Source of the DNA: an uncultured Candidatus Cenarchaeum sp.
GTDB taxonomy: Archaea > Thermoproteota > Nitrososphaeria > Nitrososphaerales > Nitrosopumilaceae
Direction: 5' to 3'
Assembly (NCBI GenBank): GCA_958295735.1
Contig: OY282369.1
Location: 2,084,983-2,116,982, forward strand
Length of the DNA: 32,000 nucleotides
Shown here: in pieces, positions 6,125 to 30,687 of the stretch
How positions within the stretch are numbered: the stretch's first letter is position 1
Layout: each line of letters opens with the position of its first letter
Position numbers and translations under genes: made by a program
Notes under the pieces: generated by a model
Database searches by the model: none
What the model was told of the DNA's origin: nothing
The model's input: the letters and a program-made list of their open reading frames with translations, nothing else

Positions 6125-6985
6125 GTGGAGCGGGAGGCCGGGCGGCGGCAGCGGCGGCGGGGCGCCGCCTCCGGCCTCCCCCTCGCCGCCTCCGGCGCCG
6201 CCTCCATCGCGGCGCTGTTCGTCGTGTACTCTTGGCACCAGTCCCCCGAGCTGGCGACCCCCGAGGCCGTCGACGGCATGGTCCGCATGGCCGCCGCGTT
6301 CTATGCCGCGCTGGTCGCCTCCATGGGGGCCGTGGCCGCCGGCCTGCGCTCCCGGCACCGCGCGATGGCCCGCGGCCCCCCCGGAGCGGCGTGGGGCCTG
6401 GGGGCCGTGGCGGCGGCCACGTGGAACCGCAGGTCGTCCAGGATACTCGCCGCCGCGTTCGTCGGGTACGGCGCCCTGTTCTCCGTGACGTCGGGCGCGC
6501 TGGTGTACCAGCCGGACGTCAGCTTTTCCCGGCACTACGGGGTGGACGTCCCGTCGGCGGAGGCGATCCCGTGCTGCGGCGAGCCGGGCTACATGCCCAA
6601 GGTGCTCGTGTACGCGACGGACCATGTCGGGATCCAGATCGTCCCGGTGAACGTGGTCCTGCAGGCCGCGGTCTCGTACATGGTGGGCATCAACGCGGCG
6701 CTGGCGCTGGGCGGCGGCATCCCGGCGGGCGGCCGCGGCGCGGGCGGCGGGATAGGCGCGGCCGCCGGGCTGTTCGTCGCGTGCCCCACGTGCGCGGGCA
6801 CTGCCCTGTCGGTATTCGCGGGGGCCGCGGGGGGGATCGTGCTGGGGGCGGCCCTGGCGCAGATGCAGACCCTGCTCATGGCGGTGAGCATACCCGTGCT
6901 GCTCGCCGCCCCGCTGCTCGCCGCCCGCAGGCTCGGCCGCCGGCCCCCGGGGGCAGCCGCCTGCGCCGCGGGGAACGGCGCCTAG
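6125..6985 (+). CDS. Polytopic membrane protein with vicinal CC and intramembrane CPTC motifs (hypothetical)
   Basis: 286 aa with several hydrophobic helices, IPCCGEPGY in a loop and LFVACPTCAGTALSVF inside a helix. TATA spacing supports the start. No family assigned. Confidence 0.55.
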   Translation: MEREAGRRQRRRGAASGLPLAASGAASIAALFVVYSWHQSPELATPEAVDGMVRMAAAFYAALVASMGAVAAGLRSRHRAMARGPPGAAWGLGAVAAATWNRRSSRILAAAFVGYGALFSVTSGALVYQPDVSFSRHYGVDVPSAEAIPCCGEPGYMPKVLVYATDHVGIQIVPVNVVLQAAVSYMVGINAALALGGGIPAGGRGAGGGIGAAAGLFVACPTCAGTALSVFAGAAGGIVLGAALAQMQTLLMAVSIPVLLAAPLLAARRLGRRPPGAAACAAGNGA

Positions 6986-7215
6986 CGCGCCGGCATCGCC
7001 GGCCTCCGTCCCCGGGCGGAACGCCAGCCCGGATCGCGCGGGGGCGCCCGCCCGCCCGCCGGCGCCTCCCCCCGATCCCGATCCGCGCCGCGGGGCGGCG
7101 AGGCCACGCTCCCGGGATCCCGCGCGGGCGGGCCCGAACCGTGACCGCGGCAGGCCGCCCCAGGATCCCGCGCCCGGATCGCAATGGGCGCGATCCCGCG
7201 CCTTGGATCTTGGAT

Positions 7216-7241
7216 CCTGCATTATACACTTATAATGCAGG
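7216..7241 (+). promoter_or_regulatory. Palindromic TATA/operator region of the SBP gene
   Basis: cctgcattata-cact-tataatgcagg is a perfect 11-bp inverted repeat with a 4-nt centre. It ends 17 nt before the ATG at 7258. Confidence 0.6.
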
Positions 7242-7257
7242 CGGGCCGCAACGCCGC

Positions 7258-8676
7258 ATGCGGTTGCTGGAGAGGGGAGGCGCGGTCTTGGCCGCGGTTG
7301 CTGCTCTCGCCATGCTCGCCGCCCCGCTGTCTGCCGGCCCCGCCGACGCGCAGGATATGACGCTGACCGGCGTGGTTGCCGCCCCACCGGGGTGCGCCGA
7401 CGGGATGGAACGCATCATAAAGATCGCCGACATGTCAGAAGCGTGCGTAAAGCCGGCCACCAAGATTGTACTGATCGAGAGGGGATGGGGACAGGAACCG
7501 CCCATGATGGAGGATCCCATGTCCATGATGGAGGATCCCACTATGATGGAAGACCCGATGATGCCGCCGTCGATGCCGCCCCTTGACCTTACGGACGAGG
7601 AGACGGCGTGGCTGGATCAGGGCCAGACCCTGAGGGTGGCCTACGACCCGTACGGGCTTCCGCTGGAGTTCGTCGCCGACGGCATGCTCGGGGGGCTGTC
7701 CGTAGGGTACCACGATATGCTAAAGGTCGCCGTGCCAGTGCAGACCGAGCTCGTCCCGCTGGATAGCTGGGACGAGGCCCTGCAGGCGATGAGGGAGGGG
7801 AGGGCCGACATCATGTTCTCGGTAGTCGAAAACGAGCAGAGGCTCGAGTACATGGCGTTCACCGAGCCGCACACGGTGCTCACTTGGGACATGGTGACCG
7901 CCGACGAGCGAGCGGTGGATCCGTCCGACTTGGCCGGCATGGACGTGGGCATCGTGAGGGGCTACGAGATAGGGGACTGGCTGGACGCCAACATGCCGGA
8001 CGTGGAATATGCCGAGTACAATAACGCGATGGAGGCGATAACCGCACTCAGGTCTGGCGAGATCGAAGTGTACGTGGACACGTGGCCGGTCGCTTCCTAC
8101 GCGGCGCTCACCGCCGGCGACGGCCCACCCGTGCACAACGCCGGAAAGATAGGGCACGACATGGCGCTCTCCATAGGCTACGCAAAGGACAACGCAGTGC
8201 TCGGATCTATACTCATGAAGTTCTTGGACTCCGTTCCGGACGACCAGAAAGAGTTGTTGGCCATGACGTTAGCCAATCCGGTGGGCGCGCTCGCCAGCGA
8301 GGAGTTCATAGGTGCGGTGGGCGAGGCCGATCCGGCCGCGGGCGAGCTGCTGGAGGACCTTGTAGGGATGGCCGAGGAGATTAAATCGAACAACTCGGAG
8401 GATATGAACGCGTTACTGGCAGAACTCTTGGAGAGCCCCGAGTCTGTCGCCTTTGCGGAAAAGCACCCCGAATACGACGTGCGGACAGACAACCTTGGGT
8501 CATTCCAAGTGGAATTCAGGCTTTCCGCTACGGACGGCACCGGCACCCTCAGAATTGAATACGACAAGGAGTCCAGCACGCCCACGTACACCTACATGTG
8601 CGACCAGAACGACATGAGCGACGCCGCTGACGGCGAAGGACTGGCCGACAGGATACCAGGCCTGTGCGTGCCGTAG
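7258..8676 (+). CDS. Secreted family-3 solute-binding (SBP_bac_3/PBPb) domain protein with Met-rich N-terminal linker and extra C-terminal domain
   Basis: Signal-peptide-like MRLLERGGAVLAAVAALAMLAAPLSAGPADA, then PPMMEDPMSMMEDPTMMEDPMMPPSMPP. The PBPb-like core runs LRVAYDPYGLPLEF...GRADIMFSVVENEQRLEYMAFTEPH...VGIVRGYEIGDWL. The first 342 aa of track ORF 6232-8676 are rejected. Confidence 0.8.
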   Translation: MRLLERGGAVLAAVAALAMLAAPLSAGPADAQDMTLTGVVAAPPGCADGMERIIKIADMSEACVKPATKIVLIERGWGQEPPMMEDPMSMMEDPTMMEDPMMPPSMPPLDLTDEETAWLDQGQTLRVAYDPYGLPLEFVADGMLGGLSVGYHDMLKVAVPVQTELVPLDSWDEALQAMREGRADIMFSVVENEQRLEYMAFTEPHTVLTWDMVTADERAVDPSDLAGMDVGIVRGYEIGDWLDANMPDVEYAEYNNAMEAITALRSGEIEVYVDTWPVASYAALTAGDGPPVHNAGKIGHDMALSIGYAKDNAVLGSILMKFLDSVPDDQKELLAMTLANPVGALASEEFIGAVGEADPAAGELLEDLVGMAEEIKSNNSEDMNALLAELLESPESVAFAEKHPEYDVRTDNLGSFQVEFRLSATDGTGTLRIEYDKESSTPTYTYMCDQNDMSDAADGEGLADRIPGLCVP

Positions 8677-9084
8677 CCGTCCGCCGGATCCGCCGCATCG
8701 AGGGACTAGCCAGAAGGGTAGCCGTGCGAGGCCGCCCGTCACTCTGCTTGGCGCGAATCCAGTTCAGCTGAGGCGTTCCAGCGCTTGGCCCGCTCGTGCG
8801 TGACCTTGCGGATGCCCGGCTCGCGCATGCCGTAACCGCCCGCCGGATCCGCCGCGCCCGGGACAGCCGGCAGGACGGCCGGCTCGCGCGCGGGCCGCTT
8901 CCTGCTTCCGTACGCCGCGCCAATTATTGATGCAAATCCCGCCGCGTTGCCCGTTGCCAACCGCCCGCGCATGGGAGCGGAGCGTGGCCTTGCAGGCATC
9001 CGGCGGAGCCGGCATCGTTGCAGAATGCGGGGCCTCCTGCCCGTTCTCCGGATGCGCCGGCGCGCGCCAGCTTGTGGCGGAAGG

Positions 9085-9122
9085 GACGCGCCGCGCGGTG
9101 AGGATGGCGGGCCCGACCGGAT
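9085..9122 (-). repeat. Duplicate of tRNA-Arg 3' end plus 20-nt 3' flank (att-like)
   Basis: The 38 nt gacgcgccgcgcggtgaggatggcgggcccgaccggat are identical to 9156-9193, which covers the last 18 nt of the tRNA and its downstream flank. Confidence 0.8.
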
Positions 9123-9175
9123 GCAGTTTAACGAACAAAAAACGGAGGCCCAAGAGACGCGCCGCGCGGTGAGGA

Positions 9176-9253
9176 TGGCGGGCCCGACCGGATTCGAACC
9201 GGCGACCTAACGCTCCGCAAGCGTTCGCACTGTCCATGCTGTGCAACGGGCCC
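9176..9253 (-). tRNA. tRNA-Arg (anticodon GCG), CCA encoded
   Basis: Reverse complement GGGCCCGTTGCACAGCATGGACAGTGCGAACGCTTGCGGAGCGTTAGGTCGCCGGTTCGAATCCGGTCGGGCCCGCCA folds by hand as a cloverleaf. It has a 7-bp acceptor stem, D stem GCAC/GTGC, anticodon stem AACGC/GCGTT with loop TTGCGGA, and a TTCGAAT T-loop. Confidence 0.9.
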
Positions 9254-9272
9254 CGGCTGTCTGTGGCGCGGT

Positions 9273-9284
9273 CGCTTAATGTGG
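9273..9284 (-). promoter_or_regulatory. TATA box for tRNA-Arg
   Basis: Minus strand reads ccacattaagcg, centred ~25 nt upstream of the tRNA 5' end at 9253. Confidence 0.5.
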
Positions 9285-9301
9285 ATTGCGATCGCGCGGC
9301 C

Positions 9302-9952
9302 CTACAGGGCGCGGGCGAACAGGTACGGCGTGGCGTCCGGCTCGCCGTTGGTCCAGGCGGTGGGGAGCACTGTAGTGCGTACGGCGCGCATGCGCCCGGC
9401 CGCGACCGTGCTCCCCCACCCCGCCATGCCGGAGGGATCCGGGGCGTACTTTGGCGATCGCGTGCCCGGCATCACGACGACGGAGCCGCCCAGGGCGTCC
9501 CCCATGCCGCGGATCACGGCGGCCGCCAGCGCGTCCCCGCCCATCTGCGCCAGGCCCCCTATGAAAAAGGCGGGCCGCGAAAGCCCGAGGGAGCGGTAGT
9601 CCACACCGGTCCCGTCGGCCTCGATCACGTCCAGGCGCGCCCCCGCCGCCGCGGCCGCCTCCCTCTGGACGGCGGCCAGCCGGCGGTCCAGCTCCACGGA
9701 ATGCGCCCTCATGCCGAGGGCGGCGGCGCAGTACGCGATGCGGCCGTCCCCCGACCCGACGTCGACCGCCTCGCGGCACCCGAGCCTCCGCGCCTCCAGC
9801 GCCATTTCGTACGCGGACGCGAGCCACGTGGGCGAGAACGGGGCGCGGCATCCCGGATTGCGCACGCTCCCCAGCCACAGCCGGTCCGTCTCGCCCTCGC
9901 ACGCCAGGCACGCCGTCCCTGCCACGTCCCGCTCCGCGATGCTGCCGTACAC
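9302..9952 (-). CDS. Class I SAM-dependent methyltransferase (substrate unknown)
   Basis: 216 aa with a GTG start. Motif I VDVGSGDGRIA is followed by an acidic residue after the next strand (HSVELD), a Rossmann-type layout. Confidence 0.6.
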   Translation of the reverse strand: MYGSIAERDVAGTACLACEGETDRLWLGSVRNPGCRAPFSPTWLASAYEMALEARRLGCREAVDVGSGDGRIAYCAAALGMRAHSVELDRRLAAVQREAAAAAGARLDVIEADGTGVDYRSLGLSRPAFFIGGLAQMGGDALAAAVIRGMGDALGGSVVVMPGTRSPKYAPDPSGMAGWGSTVAAGRMRAVRTTVLPTAWTNGEPDATPYLFARAL

Positions 9953-10083
9953 GGGGCTGGCCTCCGCGAACCGCCGCAGCGCCGCCAGGCGGCCCTCCCG
10001 GCCGCGCTCCCCGAGCGGGACCGCCTCGACCAGGCGCCCGCTGCCCGCCGCATCGGCGCGCAGCGCGCGCTGGATGGCTACCA

Positions 10084-10259
10084 GGCCTTCCGCGGCCGGG
10101 CGCGCCGGAACCCCGGCGCCATCGGCGTCCGCTTCGGCGCGGGGGCCAGCTACACGGCCTTCCGCGGCCGGGCGCGCCGGAACCCCGCCGCCGTCGGCGT
10201 CCGCTTCGGCGCGGGGGCCAGCTACCCGGCCTTCCGCGGTCAGGCGCGCCGGAACCCCC
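10084..10259. repeat. 72-bp tandem repeat, about 2.4 copies (degenerate extension back to ~10049)
   Basis: ggccttccgcggccgggcgcgccggaacccc... restarts at 10084, 10156 and 10228 with a few substitutions between copies. Confidence 0.85.
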
Positions 10260-12045: not shown

Positions 12046-13263
12046 CTAGAAGCCCTTCGGCATGGTGCCCCTCGAGGGCTTTCGCGCGCTGCCCTCGGCC
12101 TCGGCGCGCTTTTTGGCCGCCAGCTCGGCCGCGGCTGCCGCGACCTCCGCTGCCCTCTTGGCATCGGCGTCCAGCCTGGCGAGGTACTCTTTTTCGTACG
12201 ACTCGAGCGACCCCGCGCCGGACTGCGGCGGCGGGGGCGGAGCCTGCTGCTGCTCCTGCCTGGGCGGCGGGGGCGGCGGCGGCGGCGCCTGCTGCCTTGC
12301 CTGCGCCTTGGCCTCCGCCCCGACGCCGGCTACCGCGTAGCCGTACCCGTCAAAGTTCTTCTCCGCGGGGTGGTAGGCGAGCCTCTGCCTGGTCGCAAAG
12401 TAGTTGTTCGACGCGGCCGTGTACCCGGTGACCTTCTCCTTCTGCAGGTTCCAGTCGGACAGGGGGGTCGTGCCCCTCTTTGCGTGGAGCCTCTCGTAGT
12501 ACCTGTTGGGGGAGGGCGAGTAGCCGGGCGTCTTGGCCTTGTAGTCGAACGGGTTGCTCATCGCGGCATCCCTGTAGATGGCCTCGAGCGCCTGGGCGTT
12601 GTTGGCGGGCGGCGCGGCCGACACCGTGTCGGGCTTGGGCGCCGGCTTGGACTCCTGCTTTGCCTTTGCCCCCTTCGGAAGCGTCCCGTGCGGAGACGGG
12701 GGCTTTTCCTCCTTGGGCTCGGCCTTCGGGGGCGGGGGCGGCGGAGCCGCCTTCGTTCCCTTCGGAAGCGTCCCGTGCGGAGACGGGGGCTTTTCCTCCT
12801 TGGGCTCGGCCTTCGGGGGCGGGGGCGGCGGAGCCGCCTTCGTTCCCTTCGGAAGCGTCCCGTGCGGAGACGGGGGCTTTTCCTCCTTGGGCTCGGCCTT
12901 CGGGGGCGGGGGCGGCGGAGCCGCCTTCGTTCCCTTCGGAAGCGTCCCGTGCGGAGACGGGGGCTTTTCCTCCTTGGGCTCGGCCTTCGGGGGCGGGGGC
13001 GGCGGAGCCGCCTTCGTTCCCTTCGGAAGCGTCCCGTGCGGAGACGGGGGCTTTTCCTCCTTGGGCTCGGCCTTCGGGGGCGGGGGCGGCGGAGCCGCCT
13101 TCGTTCCCTTCGGAAGCGTCCCGTGCGGAGACGGGGGCTTTTCCTCGGGCGCCGGCTGGGCCTCGGGCTTCATGCTGATGTTGGCTGACAGCGTCTCGAG
13201 CTTTTTCTCGAGATATGCTATCTTGTCTTCAAGTTCCTTCTTTGTCGGCTTTGACTTAGCCAT
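12046..13263 (-). CDS. Coiled-coil / polyproline tandem-repeat protein (hypothetical)
   Basis: 405 aa. N-terminus MAKSKPTKKELEDKIAYLEKKLETL, then 5.5 copies of the 29-aa unit KPPSPHGTLPKGTKAAPPPPPPKAEPKEE. The C-terminal region has P8 and P5 tracts and ends in a motif echo, KPSRGTMPKGF. A TATA lies 29 nt upstream. Confidence 0.8.
   Translation of the reverse strand: MAKSKPTKKELEDKIAYLEKKLETLSANISMKPEAQPAPEEKPPSPHGTLPKGTKAAPPPPPPKAEPKEEKPPSPHGTLPKGTKAAPPPPPPKAEPKEEKPPSPHGTLPKGTKAAPPPPPPKAEPKEEKPPSPHGTLPKGTKAAPPPPPPKAEPKEEKPPSPHGTLPKGTKAAPPPPPPKAEPKEEKPPSPHGTLPKGAKAKQESKPAPKPDTVSAAPPANNAQALEAIYRDAAMSNPFDYKAKTPGYSPSPNRYYERLHAKRGTTPLSDWNLQKEKVTGYTAASNNYFATRQRLAYHPAEKNFDGYGYAVAGVGAEAKAQARQQAPPPPPPPPRQEQQQAPPPPPQSGAGSLESYEKEYLARLDADAKRAAEVAAAAAELAAKKRAEAEGSARKPSRGTMPKGF
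12671..13146. repeat. 87-bp tandem repeat, about 5.5 nucleotide-perfect copies (in-frame within 12046-13263)
   Basis: ttcggaagcgtcccgtgcgg recurs at 12674, 12761, 12848, 12935, 13022 and 13109. By eye there are no substitutions between copies. Confidence 0.95.
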
Positions 13264-15336: not shown

Positions 15337-15576
15337 TCAGGCGGGCCCGACCAGGATCTTGGGCCTGTTGGGCGTGTCGTGGTGGCACTTTTTCCCGCAC
15401 AGGGGGCAGACCTTCCTGTCCAGCAGCACGCACTGGCAGATGTGGGACTCGAGGTAGGCGCTGGCCGCCCTGCTGGACTCGCCGGTCCCGTTGCAGAACG
15501 GGCAGCCGGAGCCGAGCAGCCGTATCGTGCCGCTCCCGCCGCACACGGCGCAGCGGCCGCCCCCCGAGCCCTCCAC
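15337..15576 (-). CDS. Small DnaJ-type zinc-finger protein (CxxCxGxG x2 plus extra Cys/His cluster)
   Basis: 79 aa from the GTG at 15576: (M)EGSGGGRCAVCGGSGTIRLLGSGCPFCNGTGESS...HICQCVLLDRKVCPLCGKKCHH. A TATA lies ~30 nt upstream. The rest of track ORF 15337-16314 is rejected. Confidence 0.65.
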   Translation of the reverse strand: MEGSGGGRCAVCGGSGTIRLLGSGCPFCNGTGESSRAASAYLESHICQCVLLDRKVCPLCGKKCHHDTPNRPKILVGPA

Positions 15577-15600
15577 GGGCGCGCGGGCGGCGGGCGCCGG

Positions 15601-15700
15601 TAAAAATATTTGGTCTGCGCCGCGGGCGCGGGGCCGCGCGCCTGCCAGGCGCTTCCGCCGGTCCGGGTCCGCGCCCGCGGGGCGGGGGCCGCTGCCGGCC
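15601..15700 (-). repeat. Promoter-bearing GC-rich repeat, right arm (copy Y); includes TATA aatattttta (15601-15610)
   Basis: Inverted counterpart of 14820-14930 (see that feature). The TATA is the innermost part of the arm. Confidence 0.75.
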
Positions 15701-16612
15701 CCGCGCGTCCCGCGCCCAGGAAAGGGACGTGCGGCCAAAGGCGGGCGCGCCGTGCGGGCGCATCGCGCCGGCCGGGAGGCGAAACGGCCGCGGGATCGAG
15801 CGCGGCGCCCGCCCGCCAAAAGATCCCGCACCCGGCCGCGATCGCGCGGCGCGGGGGGCGGCCGCGGCGGTCGGGGGAAACGCCCGCGGATCCGCGCCGG
15901 AGGGGCTCGGGCCCCCTCCCCGCGGATCGCGGGTACCGCGGCCCGTGCGGCGGGCGGCGCGGGAGAGTTCCCCATGCCCGCCGGGACGGCGGCGGGCATC
16001 AAAAAGGCCCGGGCGGATCGCGGGCGCGGGGGGCGGGAAAGGGCGCCCGCGCGCGGGCGGCGCCGGGGGCGGGACTGTACGCCTTCCGGCCGGCCGCCGG
16101 AAAGCGCGCGCCGGACAGGCGGCGGGCGGGCGCGGCGGCACCCCGCGTCCGCCGCCGGCGCCGCGCAGGGCGCGATCGGGCGGGCCGCGCAGGGCGTGCC
16201 GGACGCGCACGGGCGGCGCCGGGGGGCGGGGAACGCCCGCGGGCCGATCAAGGGGATCCCGACGGCGGGCGGCGGGAGCCGGCCGATCGGGACGATCGCG
16301 GCGCGCCTTTCCACGATCTGCCGCAGCGTACGGCGCGCGCCCGGCCGCGCCGCCGATGCGGATGCGGAGGAACCGAGGGCCGGGCCGCACGGAAGCGCGT
16401 GCCGCCGTGCGTGCCCGTTGTGTTGATGGCCGGATTTGCGTCGGGGCCTCCGGGACGGGCACGGACAGGCGGGGCTGCCGCCTCCGGCACGCTTTCAACT
16501 CCCGATGCATTCGAGCCTGCGCCCGCTGCCGCCTCCGGCGCGCCCGCGCCGCCGTCGCTGAACGGCGGGGTCTTTTTCCCGCGCCCGATCCCCCAGTTGA
16601 ACGGGGGCAGCG

Positions 16613-16951: not shown

Positions 16952-18946
16952 TCATCCGGACGGCGAACCGCCCGCCGCCCCCATTGCCCGCCCGTCCTCG
17001 TCCGTTATGCTCGTAATCAGCTTGCATGCCCTTGATGCCTTTTCTTCCCCGTCGACATACTCCCGATACGCCGCTTGCGCGCTGTGGATGAGCTCGTCGT
17101 ACATGACGATCCGCGCGGAGTAGGCTTCCAGCACATTTTCCGACCGTGTTCGCCCGCCGACATTGCCCCAGTCCTCCACGTCCCTTCCCAGCACGCAGAC
17201 GAATTCCACCGGCTCGTTCCCTTTTCCCGACCTTGCAAGGACGGACCTCACGCCCTCGCCGTATTCCAAAATCTGCCCCAGCAGTTCGACCGTCGATGCC
17301 ACGGCGCCCGGCCGCTTCAGTTCTATTATGACGTGCTTGCCGCCGGCGGCCCTGTATTTTATGCCCAGTCTGGACTTTTTTTGATCCGGCGCGAGCCCGT
17401 CATAGACGTTATCTAGCGCCTTCATGATGCTTTTTTCCATGGATTTGGTCGGCGCGGCCCGATCCCAGGAAGGATCCAGCAGCCAAAGGTGATCTAAAAG
17501 GCACTCTTGTATGGCCCTTTCCCTGGCGTTTTGATCCGTCAGTTTGAAAAGTGCGTCAATCGCCCCGAGCCGGGTTTTGGCCGTCTGGTAATACGCGCCG
17601 GCCTCAAGATCACCAAGCCGCGATAATGCCCTGGTCAGCGACGGGAGATCATCCGCGCTGATTTTTTCCAGCCTGTTCAGCACGCCTTTTAATTCGAGGC
17701 TTTCGAACGCCAGTATCCCGCTGACAAAGGCGCGCCTTTTTTCGTCCTCGTCATCAATCGGCAGCGCGTGGATCCTGCCGAACAGTTTTTGGGCCGCGTG
17801 CCCGCGATCCGGCGACAGCCCGTCGAACCATCCCCTGATCTGCGGTATCTTCAGTGCGGCCTTTTCCCCGTCCAGGCCGCGCAGACTGGTCCACCTGTCT
17901 CCCACGTGCCTGAGTATTTTCCTGACCGACTCCAGCAGTGCCCGGTATTCTGGAGAATCCTCCATGATCTGCTGCCCGTTGGTGGTGGCGACGTCACTCC
18001 CGTCACCGCGATCCAAAAAATCCGCGTATACCTCGCCCACGACATACCTGTTGTATGCGCCCGCATTCTCCAGCCCCCCGAGGATGTCTTCCTGTGCCAT
18101 CTTGCCGCGGATCATGACGGTGATCCTGTTGATGCTCTCTTCGGCGTCGTGATCTTTCAGCTGCCCTGCTTTTTTCACGGTCCCGATCCACCCGTCCAGT
18201 CTCGCGGTCCGGCCGCCCCATTCCGCCACGGGATCGCAGCCGAGATCCTGGATCCCGCCCGCGCCGGATATGGCGCCCCTGCCCTTCTCCCCCAGCCCCC
18301 ACGCGTATTCCAGGTTTTTATAATAACCCGTATCCTGTTTGGTGACGTCTTCCCCGTTCACCCTCACGCTGAAATTGCCGCCGTTTCTGACCACGCTGAA
18401 TCTGCGTGCCAGCCCCCTTTTCAGGACGGCGGGCCTCCCCACGCGCTTGAGCGAGGACAAGACTATGCGGGTTCCGGGTTTCAGATCTCTGGTCACCTTG
18501 ACGGGTTTCGGGTTGTACGCCCCGTCGGGCTTTTGGGCGGCTTTCCTGATATCGTTCGCATCCATGACGAACCCGTGCGGCTCGCCGTTACCCGCGCTGG
18601 TGATCTCCACGGCGTCGGCTATTGAAAACAACGAAAGTTTGCCTATTCCCCTGCGTCCCATGACGGGCCTTCCAAATTTGGCGGTGACGTCACCCTCCTT
18701 CCTCCGTTCATACCCCACATTGAGATACTTGTCGTTCGCGTCACGGACGGTCATTCCGCTCCCGTCGTCCCGGATCACGACCCGGTTTTCGCTTATGTCT
18801 ATTGACACTACCGTCGCGTCCGCATCCCACGCGTTGGCCACCGCTTCTGACAGAACGGCCGTAATGCTGCTGTGCAGGCCTATCCCCAGGTGCTTGAGCG
18901 CGCTGAGGCTTACCCTTGCGGTGTATGTGGGTTCATCCGCCATCAT
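16952..18946 (-). CDS. GHKL (HATPase_c_3, MutL/MORC/Hsp90-type) ATPase with C-terminal PD-(D/E)xK/DUF4263-like module
   Basis: 664 aa. ATP-binding motifs EAVANAWDA, IRDDGSGM and GRRGIGKLS appear in canonical order. The C-terminal part reads ECLLDHLWLLDPSWD...SRLGIKYRAAGGKHVIIELKRPG. A GC sample is 52%, against 83-90% in the flanks. Confidence 0.85.
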   Translation of the reverse strand: MMADEPTYTARVSLSALKHLGIGLHSSITAVLSEAVANAWDADATVVSIDISENRVVIRDDGSGMTVRDANDKYLNVGYERRKEGDVTAKFGRPVMGRRGIGKLSLFSIADAVEITSAGNGEPHGFVMDANDIRKAAQKPDGAYNPKPVKVTRDLKPGTRIVLSSLKRVGRPAVLKRGLARRFSVVRNGGNFSVRVNGEDVTKQDTGYYKNLEYAWGLGEKGRGAISGAGGIQDLGCDPVAEWGGRTARLDGWIGTVKKAGQLKDHDAEESINRITVMIRGKMAQEDILGGLENAGAYNRYVVGEVYADFLDRGDGSDVATTNGQQIMEDSPEYRALLESVRKILRHVGDRWTSLRGLDGEKAALKIPQIRGWFDGLSPDRGHAAQKLFGRIHALPIDDEDEKRRAFVSGILAFESLELKGVLNRLEKISADDLPSLTRALSRLGDLEAGAYYQTAKTRLGAIDALFKLTDQNARERAIQECLLDHLWLLDPSWDRAAPTKSMEKSIMKALDNVYDGLAPDQKKSRLGIKYRAAGGKHVIIELKRPGAVASTVELLGQILEYGEGVRSVLARSGKGNEPVEFVCVLGRDVEDWGNVGGRTRSENVLEAYSARIVMYDELIHSAQAAYREYVDGEEKASRACKLITSITDEDGRAMGAAGGSPSG

Positions 18947-22197: not shown

Positions 22198-22492
22198 TTA
22201 ACGGGCGGCCGGCCCGCCTCGCAGCCGCGCCCGCGGCGGCCGCGGCGGGGCGGTTTTTCGCGCCCAAAATCCCGGTTGCGGGGTGGGCTGCGGGCGGCCG
22301 CGGGGAGCCGCCCCCGCCCGCTGCCGCGCGACGCGCCTCCGACGCGGGGCGGGCCCCCCGCCCCTGCCGGGATCCGCGCCCCGCGCCGCGCGGGGCCGCG
22401 CGCCCGCCGGCCGCGGGCGCGAAAACGCTTCTGCTGATCCAGGTTCGCGACTGCGGGGCGCGGGTTGCCGGCCCCGCGCCCCGCGCCGCACG

Positions 22493-22505
22493 CTATTTTT
22501 AAGTA
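22493..22505 (+). promoter_or_regulatory. TATA box for shikimate operon (aroA')
   Basis: ctatttttaagta is centred 28 nt upstream of the ATG at 22527. Confidence 0.6.
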
Positions 22506-25293: not shown

Positions 25294-25304
25294 CGTTTAA
25301 ATGA
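25294..25304 (+). promoter_or_regulatory. Possible internal TATA box upstream of aroE
   Basis: cgtttaaatga is centred ~32 nt upstream of the ATG at 25331. Confidence 0.4.
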
Positions 25305-25330
25305 TCGCGGGAGGGGGAGGGAGGCAGGCG

Positions 25331-26197
25331 ATGTCATTCACGTACGCGCTGGTGGGCGACCCCGTGGACAGCTCGCTCTCTCCCAGCATGCACAACGCGG
25401 CGCTCAGGGAGCTCGGGATGGACGACTACTCGTACATTGTGTACCGCGTGCGGAAGGGAGAGCTCGGCGCGGGGATCGAGTCGCTGATGGCGACGGTCGG
25501 CCTGGCGGGGCTCAACGTGACCATACCCCACAAGGTGGACGTGCTGGAATACCTGGACGAGGAGGACGAGTCCTGCCGCCTGGTGGGCGCGGCCAACACG
25601 GTCTCCGTCACGGACGCCGGCAAGCTGAGGGGGCACAACACGGACAGGGACGGGTTCATGAGCCCCATATGGCGCAGGAACCTCACCGCGGCCGGATCGC
25701 GAGTGCTGCTGATCGGCGCGGGCGGCGCCGCGCGGGCCATAGTCTCGGCGTTCGCGACGGAGGCCGCGGTCGAGGTGGTCATCGCCAACAGGTCGCGCGG
25801 GCGCGCCGAGGAGCTGGCCGCGTTCGCGGACAAGGCGGGGATCGGCGCCACGGTGGTGGGGCTGGACGAGGCGGGCAGGGAGGCGCCCGCGTGCAAGTTC
25901 ATAGTGAACGCGAGCCCCATCGGGACGGCCGGCGAGGAGAGCCCGGTGCCCGCCGAGGCCATCCCGTCCGACTCCGTCGTGTACGACGTGGTGTACCGGC
26001 CCATGGCCACCGACCTGGCGGCCAAGGCCAAGCGGAGGGGGGCCACCGTCATATACGGGTACGAGATGCTCCTCTGGCAGGCCTGCCTGTCCTTCGAGAT
26101 ATGGCACGGCATGAAGGCGCCGTACGAGGCCATGAGGCGCGCCATACTCGGCCCCGGCGCCCCCGAGCCCGGGCAGCCGGGGGCGGGGGGGCGGTGA
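25331..26197 (+). CDS. aroE: Shikimate 5-dehydrogenase
   Basis: The start MSFTYALVGDPVDSSLSPSMHNAA is the canonical AroE N-terminus. Also present are NVTIPHK, GAANTV, GHNTD and LLIGAGGAARA. The track start 25301 lies inside the TATA box and is rejected. Confidence 0.9.
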   Translation: MSFTYALVGDPVDSSLSPSMHNAALRELGMDDYSYIVYRVRKGELGAGIESLMATVGLAGLNVTIPHKVDVLEYLDEEDESCRLVGAANTVSVTDAGKLRGHNTDRDGFMSPIWRRNLTAAGSRVLLIGAGGAARAIVSAFATEAAVEVVIANRSRGRAEELAAFADKAGIGATVVGLDEAGREAPACKFIVNASPIGTAGEESPVPAEAIPSDSVVYDVVYRPMATDLAAKAKRRGATVIYGYEMLLWQACLSFEIWHGMKAPYEAMRRAILGPGAPEPGQPGAGGR

Positions 26198-26247: not shown

Positions 26248-27129
26248 ATGGAAGGGGCGGCCACCGCCCGCGTGCACGGGGCCGTGTCGCTGGTCAACGC
26301 GCTGGCCGCGGGCCGCGGGGCCACCGTCGGGGTAGCCTCGACGGTGGAGGCCGACGTGCGCGCCTCGCCGGGGAGCGGCATCACCGTGCGCTCGGAGAAC
26401 CGCAGCCTGAGCTCGCGCCTCGTGGCGCTGACCGTCCAGAAGATGGCGCCGGCGCGCGCGCTGGCCCGCACCGCGGTGCGGGTGGAACTGCGGTCGGAGA
26501 TCCCGACCGGCTTCGGCCTGAAAAGCTCCAGCGCCATATCGTCGGTGGTGGCGCTGGCCTGCGCGCGCGCGTTCGGCGATGCGGGGGGCGGGAAGGAAAA
26601 GGGGGCGGCGGCCGACTCGAGGGTGCTCGCGGCCGGGGTGGATGCCTCCATCGAGACGGGAGTCAGCGTGACCGGCGCGTACGACGACGCCTGCGCCTGC
26701 TACTACGGGGGGATCGCCGTCACCGACAACGGCAGGAGGCGGCTGGTCGCCTCGGCCAGGGCCCCCCGCAACCTGGCGGCGGCCATATTCGTGCCGCGGT
26801 CGAGGCGGCGCGGCCGCGCCGCCGATCTGCGCCTGCTGCGCCCCGTGTTCGAGAGGGCCTGGGCCCTGGCCAGAGAGGGCCACTACTGGGACGCGATGAC
26901 CGTGAACGGCCTGGCCGCCGCGCCCATGCTGGGCCCCGACCCCCGCGTGCTGGCCGACCTCGTGGGGGCGGGGGCGCTGGGCGCCTCGGTGTCCGGGAAC
27001 GGGCCGGCCGTGGCAGCGGTGGCCAGGCGCGGCGACATGCCGGAAGTGGAGAAAGTGCTCTCGCGGCTGGACGGGCGCACCGTCGTCGCCGCCCTCAACA
27101 ACGAGAGGGCGCGGGTAGCGGACATGTGA
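26248..27129 (+). CDS. aroK: Archaeal shikimate kinase (GHMP-kinase family)
   Basis: GHMP motif EIPTGFGLKSSSA; position directly after aroE; 293 aa, as for MJ1440-type kinases. Confidence 0.8.
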   Translation: MEGAATARVHGAVSLVNALAAGRGATVGVASTVEADVRASPGSGITVRSENRSLSSRLVALTVQKMAPARALARTAVRVELRSEIPTGFGLKSSSAISSVVALACARAFGDAGGGKEKGAAADSRVLAAGVDASIETGVSVTGAYDDACACYYGGIAVTDNGRRRLVASARAPRNLAAAIFVPRSRRRGRAADLRLLRPVFERAWALAREGHYWDAMTVNGLAAAPMLGPDPRVLADLVGAGALGASVSGNGPAVAAVARRGDMPEVEKVLSRLDGRTVVAALNNERARVADM

Positions 27130-27639
27130 CCCGGCGCCCCCCCGGGGCGCGGGCGGGGATATCGCGCGGGCGCGGGGCGGGCCGGGGGCGCGGCCGGTCC
27201 CGCGAGCGCGGGAACCCGCGGCGGGGAGCGCCCGCAGCGCGCCCGGGGGATCCCGCGAGGGCCGCCCGCGGTTCGGCGCGCGCGCCCCGATCCTCCGGCC
27301 GGATGCGCGGCTTGGCGCCGGCCGGGGCCGCCGGCGCCGCGCCCCCGCGGGCACCTGACCGGCCCGCTCCCGCATTCGGAGGCACGCCGCGCGGCGCCGG
27401 ACTGGCACCGGGCGGGGGGGCCCCGGGGCCGGGACTAAGATGCGGGGCAAGCCGCTTCGAAAGCGCGGTAACTCGCGCGGCCCTGTATTTTGCGGGGCCG
27501 CCGCGGGATGCGCGGCGGATCCTCCCAAGCGCGGGCTCCGCTGGTTGGCGGCGGGCCGAGCCGAAACGAACCGCCCGCGCCCGTCGCGATTTCGGCCGCC
27601 GGCGGTCGGCTCGCCGCCACCTGGCCCGTTCTCTGCAGC

Positions 27640-28237
27640 CTAGTCCCGCTTGACCTTCATGATCGGGTTTGCGTCGACGGCGTACGCCGGTTCGCCGTCC
27701 GGCGTGAAGAACTCCGTCTTGTTGATCTGGCCCGCCACGGCCTTTATGCTCACCACCATGCCGTTGCTACTATCATAGACGCTGAAATCCTCGCTGAGCG
27801 GTTCGCAATCCACGTCAAAGTCCGTTGTTCCGGATGCCACGTTGTCCTGCCGGCCCACTTTGAAATCCTGCGGCCGGCGGTTCTCCTTCGGCACGTACGC
27901 GCTGATATGGACCGAGTAGCTGATCGTAAAGCCGTCGGGCGAATCCGGAGCCGGAACCACGTGGTTTGCCACGAACAAAACGCGGATTGTGGTTCCGGCG
28001 CCGTCGTTTACCCTGTAGTAGCTCGGGCGTATCAGTCTCGGCGTGCACGTTGCGTAACCCATGCCCTCGATGCCTTTGGCGATCTCCGCCTCGGGAGTCA
28101 TTCTTCCGCCCCACAGCATGTTCCGTAATCTTGCTCGTGCCGTCTCTCTTCCCGTGCAAAACGACCACCGTGGGGTTCCTAAACATCCCGTCGACGCGGA
28201 TCACGAGCTGCTTGCACGGCTTGAGGATGATCGGCAT
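27640..28237 (-). pseudogene. Hypothetical protein split by a 1-nt frameshift at a C4/G4 run (28109-28112)
   Basis: The frame from ATG 28237 reads MPIILKPCKQLVIRVDGMFRNPTVVVLHGKRDGTSKITEHAVG and then turns into Arg/Gly junk. The neighbouring frame becomes protein-like at ...GGRMTPEAEIAKGIEGMGYATC... and runs to 27640. Deleting one G joins them into about 198 aa. Confidence 0.5.
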
Positions 28238-28291
28238 CTGGTCCTTGGTTTTGCACGCGGCTTTTATGGGGCCTACCCCCCGCTGATCTCT

Positions 28292-28672
28292 CTAGCCATC
28301 GTCCGCGGGATCGAGCTCAAGCAGCTCCACCTTGTCGCCGCTCTTTCGCAAAGCGTACTTTCTGCCATTCCATTCTACAGGGTAAATCTTGTTTTCGACC
28401 ATTTTTGCCGAATAGTAGGATATCTGCTCTACTCCGTCGACGTTAGTCACGCTGACGGGCGCGGGGACGTTTACGGCAGACGTGCTGGCTGGCGTGTGGG
28501 TCGGCGCGCTGACTGGCCGCGGATCGCAGATTCCATCCTCTCCGTCAATCCGCACCCTGCAAACCGGGTTCTGCGTGGACTGCCCCGTGGCCGCCCGGAA
28601 CCTTTTCCGGTCCTGCTCCTCCCACGTCGGCTTGGCCAAGGACATGCAGGACCCCGCATTCTTCCCTACCAT
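28292..28672 (-). CDS. Hypothetical protein (126 aa; alternative start at M10)
   Basis: The C-terminal half is protein-like (VDGVEQISYYSAKMVENKIYPVEWNGRKYALRKSGDKVELLELD). Composition is AT-shifted like the downstream gene. No family recognised. Confidence 0.5.
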   Translation of the reverse strand: MVGKNAGSCMSLAKPTWEEQDRKRFRAATGQSTQNPVCRVRIDGEDGICDPRPVSAPTHTPASTSAVNVPAPVSVTNVDGVEQISYYSAKMVENKIYPVEWNGRKYALRKSGDKVELLELDPADDG

Positions 28673-28729
28673 AAAGGCACGAAGTCACCACTATTTCACC
28701 CGCGTGTCAACAAAACCTGATCGCGCGGT

Positions 28730-28807
28730 TGCCGCGCGTCCGGGGATGCCGCGCGTCCGGGGTTGCCGCGCGTCCGGGGATGCCGCGCGTCCGGGGTTGC
28801 CGCGCGG
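28730..28807. repeat. 17-bp tandem repeat, about 4.6 copies (tgccgcgcgtccgggg[a/t], alternating, i.e. 34 bp x 2.3)
   Basis: Units are 28730-28746, 28747-28763, 28764-28780, 28781-28797 and a partial 28798-28807. The array lies 58-135 nt upstream of the ATG at 28672. Confidence 0.9.
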
Positions 28808-29532
28808 CACGGGCCGGCCCGCGGCAAACCGGAAATCGGGGGAGGCGCCGGATGCGCCTGCCCGCGTCCCCGGGGCACGGGGCGGAGCCTGCCGGCAATC
28901 GCGGGGCGCGCCCCGCGCCGCGCCGCAGCGCCGCGCCGGACGGGCGGACGGACCTGGCGGCCCGGGGCCGCGCGGGATCGCCGCCGGGCCGGCATCCGCC
29001 GCCCTCCGCCGCCCGAGCCGATCCAGCAGCCGGCCCGCCGCGTGCGCGACGGGCAGCCAGAACGCGGCGCTGCGCGCTGCCAGCATGATGTGCGGGACGG
29101 GCCGGGGCGGGCGGAACGCGCCGTTGGGGATCGGCGAGGCCGGGATCACCGGCGCGTTGCTGCGCGCGACCGGCATCGGGCACTGGTTGTGCTGGTTCGG
29201 GGCAGCCTCGGCCCCGACGAGTCCCACGATGCCGCAGATCGGAAGCGGGGCGTACGGCAGGATCCGCGCGCGCTGCATGGCGGGAAGGGGCCGCGGAGCC
29301 CCGGCCTCGGGCGGGAATCCGCCGGCATCCGGCCCCTCCACCGCGCGCTCCGGGGCGCCGCCCGCACGTGTCGCATCGCCGGGAGCCCCCGCGGGCGCCC
29401 GTCCCCGGGCGGGGCCCGATCCCGGCGCCCGCCGATGCCGGCAGCGCCGCCGGCGCGGGGGCGGGGCCGCGCGCGCCAGGAAAGGCCGGCGGGGGCGGGC
29501 GGCCCCGCGGCCGATCCGGGCGCCCCCCCTGT

Positions 29533-29544
29533 AAGGTTATATCC
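29533..29544 (+). promoter_or_regulatory. TATA box for aroC
   Basis: aaggttatatcc is centred ~27 nt upstream of the ATG at 29566. Confidence 0.6.
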
Positions 29545-29565
29545 ACCGCGGCCCCACGCGCGCCG

Positions 29566-30687
29566 ATGTCGGCCGGCTCGCTGGGCAGGAGGCTCGTCCT
29601 CACGAGCTTCGGGGAGAGCCACGGCAAGTGCGTGGGCGCGGTCCTCGCCGGCTGCCCCGCGGGGCTGGCCCTCGGCGAGGGGGACGTGCAGGAGATGCTG
29701 GACCTGAGGCGGCCCGGCCTGTCCGCCGTCTCGACGGCGCGGAAGGAGGGCGACGCGGTGGAGATGCTGTCCGGGGTGTACCGCGGCCGCACCACCGGGG
29801 CGCCCATAGCGATGCTGGTGCGCAACGAGGACCAGAGGCCCGGGGCGTACGGCGAGACGGCCTCCAAGGTGAGGCCGGGCCACTCGGACTACCCGGCCAT
29901 GGTGAGGTACGGCGGCTTCAACGACCACCGCGGCGGCGGCCACTTTTCGGGGAGGCTCACGGCGACCCACGTGATGGGCGGGGCCGTGGCCCGCAAGCTG
30001 CTGCGCGAGGCGCTCGGCGTCGCGACGCGCTCGTACACGGTGCGCATAGGGGACGTGGCCGCGGACGGGCCCGGCGGGAAGGGCGGCCGGCTCTGGACCC
30101 GGCGGCCCCCCCCCGCGTCGGCCGTCTACTCCAACGAGGTGCGGTGCCCGGACGCCGCGGCGGCTGCCCGCATGAGGGAGGCCGTGCTGGCCGCCAAGAA
30201 GGGCGGCGACTCGCTGGGCGGCGTCGTCGAGTCGGTGACCACGGGCCTGCCGGCCGGCGTGGGCGAGCCCATGTTCGGCTCGCTGGAGTCGGACGTCAGC
30301 AGGGCGCTGTACTCCATACCCTCGGTGAAGGGGGTGGAGTTCGGCTCGGGGTTCGCCGGCTCGCTCCGGCGCGGCTCGGAGAACAACGACCCGTACGCGG
30401 TGAGGTCCGGCCGCATAGTCACGGCGACCAACAACGCCGGCGGGATCCTGGGGGGCCTGTCCACGGGGATGCCGCTCGTGCTGCGCGCCGCGTTCAAGCC
30501 TGCCTCGTCCATATCGCTCCCGCAGCGCACCGTGGACGCCCGCGCCAGGAGGCCGGCCGTGCTGCGCGTGGGCGGCAGGCACGATCCCTGCGTGGTGCCG
30601 AGGGCGCCGCCCGTCGTGGACTGCATGGTCTCGCTGGTGCTGGCCGACCACGCCCTGACCGGCGGGTTCATCGGGGCGGTGCTGTAG
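29566..30687 (+). CDS. aroC: Chorismate synthase
   Basis: LTSFGESHGKCVGAVLAGCPAGL, RRPG, RPGHSDY, GGGHFSGR, GDSLGGVVE and GGILGG are AroC signatures. The start ATG 29566 is chosen by TATA spacing. Confidence 0.92.
   Translation: MSAGSLGRRLVLTSFGESHGKCVGAVLAGCPAGLALGEGDVQEMLDLRRPGLSAVSTARKEGDAVEMLSGVYRGRTTGAPIAMLVRNEDQRPGAYGETASKVRPGHSDYPAMVRYGGFNDHRGGGHFSGRLTATHVMGGAVARKLLREALGVATRSYTVRIGDVAADGPGGKGGRLWTRRPPPASAVYSNEVRCPDAAAAARMREAVLAAKKGGDSLGGVVESVTTGLPAGVGEPMFGSLESDVSRALYSIPSVKGVEFGSGFAGSLRRGSENNDPYAVRSGRIVTATNNAGGILGGLSTGMPLVLRAAFKPASSISLPQRTVDARARRPAVLRVGGRHDPCVVPRAPPVVDCMVSLVLADHALTGGFIGAVL

Follow-up and report, generated by a model that had tools for sequence, protein, structure and literature searches.

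A compositionally foreign gene cassette occupies the aroA position of an archaeal shikimate cluster and probably represents a partly decayed accessory operon

The window analysed here is a stretch of 32,000 nucleotides (nt) from contig OY282369.1 of an uncultured Candidatus Cenarchaeum sp., and our subject is a compositionally foreign block of small genes that interrupts its shikimate-pathway (aro) cluster. By Pfam, the plus strand carries aroE (25301-26197), aroK (26248-27129; GHMP_kinases_N), which encodes the archaeal GHMP-type shikimate kinase, and aroC (29566-30687; Chorismate_synt, E 4e-122), which encodes chorismate synthase; aroK and aroC are the left and right anchors of a conserved aroK-aroA-aroC synteny. 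The 2436-nt gap between them holds a block of about 1 kb on the minus strand (27640-28672), which encodes three genes, here designated A, B and C. In the reading direction of the block, the order is an array of 17-bp direct repeats beside it (28730-28806), a putative promoter and 5' region (28646-28729), gene A (28292-28645), a remnant of gene B (28120-28291) and gene C (27640-28101). It is bordered by a left spacer (27130-27639, 71-88% G+C [GC]) and a right spacer (28807-29565, 72-91% GC).

An independent 58.7-kb contig (European Nucleotide Archive sample ERZ19489113; loci L001 and L004) was 99% identical to the window. At L004 the gene order is DeoC-type aroA', DHQS-II aroB', aroD, aroE, aroK, the gap, aroC, CM-aminotransferase and PDH, and the order that the original prediction gave for the window stands: aroE, aroK and aroC by Pfam, and aroA', aroB' and aroD in this near-identical sister strain. 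The same contig bears on whether the block is an assembly chimera or a contaminant. A sharp change in composition is what such an artefact would produce, but both junctions are reproduced in the independent L004 locus, with 99-100% identity across the flanks, and we give this explanation almost no credence.

To place the locus in context, we scanned one genome per GTDB species for aroK, which returned 73 loci. In about 55 Nitrosopumilaceae loci carrying both genes, 1290-1400 nt separate aroK from aroC, and the EPSP synthase gene, aroA, fills this interval (typical gap ~1295 bp). The block is thus not conserved at this site in relatives, about 55 species of which carry aroA there instead, and a synteny that ranks among the most conserved in the family is interrupted in the window. 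We found no similarity to aroA in any frame of the window, either by tblastn (E<=10), nhmmer or relaxed blastn, or by hmmsearch --max (E<=100) of six-frame translations with a profile hidden Markov model (HMM) built from 15 aroA sequences. Because aroA fills the aroK-aroC gap in relatives and is absent here, the cassette replaces aroA locally. It sits exactly in the conserved aroA slot, and aroA has been lost from that position without a detectable remnant. The original prediction had recognised that EPSP synthase is missing, which holds for all 32 kb, and had overlooked that the cassette occupies its very slot. Together the left and right spacers measure 1269 nt, not far from the 1295 nt that is usual for the gap. 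The idea that they are the two halves of an aroA pseudogene was not supported, however, as everything that tblastn, hmmsearch, nhmmer and relaxed blastn returned was GC-rich noise and not collinear. When 5.8 billion proteins were searched with the aroA profile, none from the 3,166,131-bp source contig was among the best 120 of 5704 matches. Were aroA missing genome-wide, this would imply a metabolic dependency in a probable symbiont.

We also considered whether the cassette or the neighbouring reading frame orfX (described below) might encode a non-homologous EPSP synthase that has taken over the function of aroA. The cassette does lie exactly at the aroA position, and the other shikimate-pathway genes are intact and have host codon usage. 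However, A, B and C are small and do not look enzymatic, they are found also at unrelated loci and in genomes that have retained aroA, and insertion sequence (IS) elements have destroyed the cassette in the sister strain; aroA itself may lie elsewhere in the 3.17-Mb genome. A replacement enzyme is therefore very improbable.

The aroA-aroC junction is also disrupted in further lineages of 50-67% GC (L049, L054, L056 and L060). L060 has a 3-kb insert downstream of aroA that contains a low-GC orphan gene, and in L049, L054 and L056 aroC was not found within ~9 kb of aroA. At L049 (12100-20500), aroA is followed after ~8 kb by an A-B remnant that is split by an IS66-like element and oriented like the cassette of the window.

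Gene A (P0005; homologue P0006) encodes 117 amino acids (aa; MSLAKPTWEE...); its mechanically delimited open reading frame (ORF) begins at 28672, and its likely start is the ATG at 28645. Gene C (P0001) encodes 153 aa (MTPEAEIAK...), has a third-codon-position GC (GC3) of 0.80 and is the conserved terminal gene of the module. The original prediction had counted two proteins, one of them frameshifted. In every relative, B and C overlap or abut as separate genes, so the supposed single frameshifted gene is B plus C, and the lesion itself belongs to B. We aligned the B remnant to B of L002, L079, L092, L094 and L102 and of the L001 paralogue; intact B in relatives has ~61-70 aa. The ancestral ATG of B in the window (28300-28298) overlaps the end of gene A and yields only MAREISGG, as a 1-nt deletion at about codon 7-8 brings in a stop after 8 codons. 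An internal ATG of the remnant lies at 28237. Further downstream, the B stop codon has been lost (TAG to AAG), and the B frame continues over gene C to 27815. Both the deletion and the stop-codon change are common to the window and L004, as judged against intact B (for example that of L102, MTTRIKGSVGPVKG...), and the L001 paralogue has an in-frame TGA at the codon where window B carries the lost-stop change.

The block differs sharply from its surroundings in composition. Its GC is ~60% overall and 0.55-0.65 in 200-nt windows, compared with 0.72-0.82 for host genes in windows of the same size and 0.75-0.91 for the spacers that flank it, with maxima of 0.85-0.91; GC3 is 0.75-0.87 for the cassette genes versus 0.94-0.98 for aroE, aroK and aroC. 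A minus-strand block of foreign composition between very GC-rich spacers, as first described, is therefore borne out. Both spacers had also been called ORF-less. This is apt for the left spacer, which lacks codon periodicity, but not for the right spacer, in which ~300 nt (28990-29290) show a strong three-base periodicity, GC reaching 0.88-0.97 in one of the phases, in keeping with a minus-strand frame with a host-type coding signal. This frame, orfX (signal at ~28990-29279; ORF 28691-29341), lies on the cassette strand upstream of the cassette, and its open frame continues through the 17-bp array. It had no Pfam match and was found in the source species only.

The window as a whole has a GC content of ~72%. 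The closest aroK relatives are from Nitrosopumilaceae and Cenarchaeum metagenome-assembled genomes, and as even these best matches reach only 46-57% identity, the source is a divergent ammonia-oxidising archaeon. Sponge-associated Thaumarchaeota are reported to have raised GC and to be enriched in transposases and in toxin-antitoxin (TA) and restriction-modification (RM) genes (PMC7848895); the source genome fits that profile, and this large-genome, extremely GC-rich lineage is probably a sponge symbiont. Intergenic DNA in the window is richer in GC than coding DNA, an inversion of the usual pattern: the spacers at 15500-16500, 22200-22500, 27130-27400, 28870-28990 and 29320-29500 have a GC of 0.84-0.91, versus 0.65-0.80 for coding DNA. 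Together with the GC3 of 0.94-0.98, these GC-rich spacers suggest an extreme GC-directed mutation or conversion bias. Two other genes depart from host composition. One, on the minus strand 9 kb from the cassette (16952-18946), encodes a compositionally foreign 664-aa HATPase_c_3 protein (GC 60%, GC3 0.73); the other, an 814-aa ORF with an SBP_bac_3 domain on the plus strand (6232-8676), has a low GC3 of 0.74.

A, B and C had no match in Pfam, PHROGs, NCBIfam, PADLOC or PDB, in agreement with the original statement that the proteins belong to no recognised family. A word-indexed protein search found just four relatives of C and two of A. HMMER, run exhaustively with a profile of C, recovered 174 cluster representatives at E<=1e-3, mostly of ~150 aa, so the C family comprises at least 174 clusters. 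Fifty-one members of the family lacked a meaningful Pfam match, and a profile of these 51 matched no PDB sequence. The AlphaFold model of C built from the 51-sequence alignment had a mean predicted local distance difference test score (pLDDT) of 95.9 and a predicted template modelling (TM) score of 0.87, whereas a model from three sequences was unusable (pLDDT 30). In the model, an N-terminal helix is followed by two four-stranded units with long hairpins. C is a tandem duplication of a ~60-residue beta-module, the two halves of which are homologous (hhalign 97%, E 1.7e-11). Foldseek comparison of the model with PDB and BFVD gave nothing significant: the best E was ~0.1 (0.08 in BFVD, which bears on the viral or plasmid relatives once envisaged), and the top matches were SSB- or GFP-like noise with a TM of ~0.2. 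C of the window retains every residue that is invariant in the family. We also tried B as a divergent HicA and ruled this out (hhalign probability 0.2%). The C family, with its confident predicted fold and no structural neighbour, is thus identified here together with the conserved, unannotated three-gene module to which it belongs.

Other ammonia-oxidising archaea also carry the A-B-C module, with several copies to a genome. In the 2.36-Mb circular genome of L002 (40% GC), A, B and C have 117, 67 and 124 aa and are joined by 4-nt overlaps, and in L079/L080 they have 110, 61 and 156 aa, again with 4-nt overlaps. The same A-B-C order is found in L092, L094, L102 and the second copy of the source species (L001, 10001-10995), and A homologues lie upstream of B-C in L002, L049, L079, L092, L094 and L102. 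Throughout, C closes a small cluster of genes on one strand. The genes before it are A-B in seven independent settings, whereas six to seven metagenomic loci (L078, L084, L085, L086, L088/L089 and L090) have a HicB-like gene and a HicA toxin gene in their stead, with HicA_toxin matches (E 3e-15 and 9e-15) directly upstream of C and a gap of 19-45 nt before it. In L099/L100, a 66-aa protein with an N-terminus that resembles a ribbon-helix-helix by eye and a 59-71-aa protein take this place. The recurrent link between C and HicAB offers a concrete functional lead.

The genomic neighbourhoods of these copies are variable and rich in mobile and defence genes. The L001 paralogue adjoins an rve integrase; L079 has IS1595, IS630, RmuC, an MmeI-type RM gene and HNH as neighbours; L002 has AbiEii, ParE and DUF5678; L102 has a ParE/YafQ-like toxin; the L049 copy carries an IS66-like insertion; and a tyrosine integrase and ParB_N lie near the distant C homologues of L098. 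The source species has at least three C paralogues (P0001, P0002 and P0025). A, B and C are therefore patchy, multi-copy accessory families found beside IS, integrase, RM and toxin genes; in line with the original prediction, they are not core genes. The paralogue P0025 (L081, 8001-8564; GC3 0.88) is a solitary C gene that lacks A-B and is flanked by eIF2-alpha/Nop10 on one side and a DUF354 gene on the other, and it has an Arg-rich N-terminal extension and a C-terminal Cys/His tail (CNVCGRDLTAGHNDHG).

The array upstream of A is real. Four exact 17-bp units (TGCCGCGCGTCCGGGGW), whose last base alternates between A and T, are followed by a partial fifth; TRF reported 4.5 copies and, at a period of 34 bp, 100% identity. 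By chance, 0.19 matches are expected, and none of 100 shuffles reached four. The repeat unit has 82% GC, like host spacer, and is restricted to the orthologous site in the source species, where the array is one unit shorter in the 99%-identical sister strain. As a 17-nt insertion or deletion would shift any reading frame, the array is non-coding. We found no array upstream of A in L001, L002, L049, L079 or L094. Very GC-rich spacers and tandem repeats are frequent across the window, and so neither is peculiar to the aroK-aroC gap: TRF found many further arrays. Two of these are stronger than the one upstream of A: a perfect 87-bp x 5.5 repeat (12671-13146), which falls in a minus-strand ORF of 405 aa without a Pfam match, and a 72-bp x 2.5 repeat (10077-10258) with 93% identity.

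The original prediction had called these repeats iteron-like and the block a remnant of an integrated plasmid or virus, or a small mobile cassette; extended to the array, this would make it a partition site or an origin of the iteron type. The length of the direct repeats (17 bp in 4.5 units, where iteron origins have several units of 17-22 bp), the foreign composition of the block, and the tyrosine integrase and ParB_N near the distant C homologues of L098 all speak for a plasmid or viral origin. However, there is no Rep or Orc1/Cdc6 gene anywhere in the 2.4-kb gap, and no tRNA or Rfam family near the array. Nor is there an AT-rich unwinding element: 120-nt windows across the array and past it have a GC of ~0.72-0.89, and on the gene A side GC is lower over an 84-nt stretch only. 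The repeats do not travel with the other copies of the module. The cassette lacks an integrase, capsid genes and any other viral hallmark gene, and it has no homologues in IMG/VR, INPHARED, PLSDB or PHROGs. We found no att sites, terminal repeats or target duplications around the block, where flanking matches were low-complexity and GC-rich only, and the nearest tRNA gene is at 9176. Nor is the block itself an IS element or transposon, as it contains no transposase and its inverted repeats are just GC-rich noise; the IS elements in L004 are later insertions into the cassette. What does fit an integrated element is its deviant composition and the different content of the site in relatives. Of the original reading, then, a small, foreign, decaying cassette survives, and its derivation from a plasmid or virus is quite improbable. 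The iteron interpretation does not hold up, and the array behaves as a strain-variable minisatellite, not as a replication origin or partition site.

A TATA-like element, TTTATGG (~28675-28669), lies ~28 nt upstream of the ATG at 28645 and may act as the promoter. Here the TTTATGG of the window differs from the sequence in L004 and the L001 paralogue, which have retained TTTATCATA / TTTATTATA. The arrangement raises the alternative of a functional, regulated host operon, comprising A, C and a shortened B, in which the 17-bp repeats would be operator or activator sites for a transcription factor upstream of the TATA box. Archaeal activators bind upstream of the start in the very range occupied by the repeats, 85-161 nt from the likely start codon; A and C are full length, C has kept all conserved residues, and the array lies exactly at the border of a tract that diverges between strains (see below). 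Yet one repeat unit has been gained or lost between near-identical strains, no other copy of the module has repeats, the TATA-like box bears derived substitutions, B is broken, and the sister strain tolerates disruption of A and C by IS elements. We therefore regard a regulated operon as unlikely, if still a more serious contender than a plasmid or viral remnant.

Comparison with the sister strain and with the paralogues provided a view of the age and state of the block. GC3 is 0.57-0.72 for the L001 paralogue beside the rve integrase, 0.75-0.87 for the window copy and 0.88 for P0025, with 0.91-0.98 for the host. This series across three C paralogues of the source species is consistent with amelioration of horizontally acquired genes, of which the locus offers a clean natural example. 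The ratio of nonsynonymous to synonymous substitution rates (dN/dS) between the window copy and the L001 paralogue is ~0.45, for A and for C. In L004, DDE_3 (IS630-type) elements (L004 coordinates 6955-8269 and 8831-10158) are inserted in A, at ~28486 of the window, and in C, at ~27927-27931. IS66 and rve elements are also present within 20 kb on the sister-strain contig, a sign of high IS activity.

The two strains differ by 0-0.4% over 10 kb of flanking DNA. From 27054, in the last 75 nt of aroK, to 28291, an interval that includes the left spacer, C and B, divergence rises to ~5%, and it peaks at 14% (12 substitutions) over the 84 nt that precede A. The divergence ends exactly at the first 17-bp repeat unit, and the following 759 nt are free of substitutions. 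A divergent tract of ~1.7 kb (27054-28730) with sharp borders, at the aroK 3' end and at the first repeat unit, thus lies within strains that are otherwise 99.6-100% identical. The differences are derived about equally in both strains, and the variant bases match the paralogue about equally often. Gene conversion from the paralogue is unsupported as the origin of the tract, since both strains match the paralogue about equally; because the differences are derived equally in both, the tract has the look of a divergent allele that was imported by recombination or has long been maintained.

Judging from genomic context, we think that the block is probably a resident, partly decayed copy of an A-B-C accessory operon that circulates among ammonia-oxidising archaea (Nitrososphaeria) as a selfish module resembling TA systems or defence islands. 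A lower-GC operon would have been acquired horizontally and would since have been ameliorating toward host composition. When intact, it would be transcribed from the TATA-like box ~28 nt upstream of A, and A, B and C would be translated by coupling, which we propose because relatives show 4-nt gene overlaps. A and B would form an interchangeable small upstream pair, and C would be the common output or partner; the whole may work as a TA-like or defence-island-type selfish module. The window copy would be in the course of being lost, as suggested by the frameshift and lost stop of B, the TATA substitutions and the dN/dS of ~0.45, and in the sister strain loss would have come through the two IS630-type insertions that split A and C. 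The array would be a slippage-prone minisatellite in a host-type, GC-rich spacer.

Several observations weigh against this explanation. Neither A nor B has a recognisable toxin or antitoxin domain, B has no profile similarity to HicA, and no PADLOC model matches; with no domain or PADLOC match, the functional class is assigned purely through guilt by association, over ~20 loci. The block shows no terminal repeats or target duplications as signs of mobility. The 5%-divergent, sharp-bordered tract is better explained by recombination or long-lived alleles than by simple decay in place. In addition, A and C may still be functional, given that the invariant residues are kept and the fold is confident, and "decaying" may overstate the case.

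A bolder proposal, to which we assign a low probability, is that A-B-C is a previously undescribed three-component TA or defence system in which C, with a new fold, is wired behind either A-B or HicB-HicA, and that its arrival accompanied the loss of EPSP synthase. If so, the organism would need its host or other symbionts as a source of chorismate-derived compounds. A partly decayed accessory operon remains the explanation that we favour. Ammonia-oxidising archaea are ecologically important, and their repertoire of accessory and defence genes is poorly known.

Finally, we compared the locus with known systems. Relative to the canonical archaeal shikimate cluster (aroA'-aroB'-aroD-aroE-aroK-aroA-aroC), the window keeps all genes but aroA, collinear and host-like; the aroA slot is filled by the cassette and 1.27 kb of spacer. 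Iteron-regulated plasmid origins likewise have head-to-tail repeats beside a small operon, such as the 4.5 units of 17 bp here, but the window has neither Rep nor an AT-rich unwinding element, and its repeats are GC-rich, strain-variable and not conserved with the cassette. The integrated mobile elements of Thaumarchaeota include proviruses, casposons and cryptic integrated elements. With these the block shares a foreign composition, orphan genes and, elsewhere, links to IS elements and integrases; it differs in its size of only ~1.1 kb and in having no integrase, att site, tRNA target, hallmark gene or database match. Type II and three-component TA loci (HicAB; toxin-antitoxin-chaperone) provide the remaining comparison. 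In type II TA loci, a recognisable toxin and antitoxin domain pair accompanies the small coupled genes, whereas A and B match no toxin or antitoxin family, and C has no match to a SecB-like or regulator-like fold. As in such loci, the genes of the module are small, tightly coupled, multi-copy and fast-evolving and lie in variable or mobile regions rich in IS and RM genes, and in at least six loci a gene of the C family immediately follows a bona fide HicB-HicA pair.

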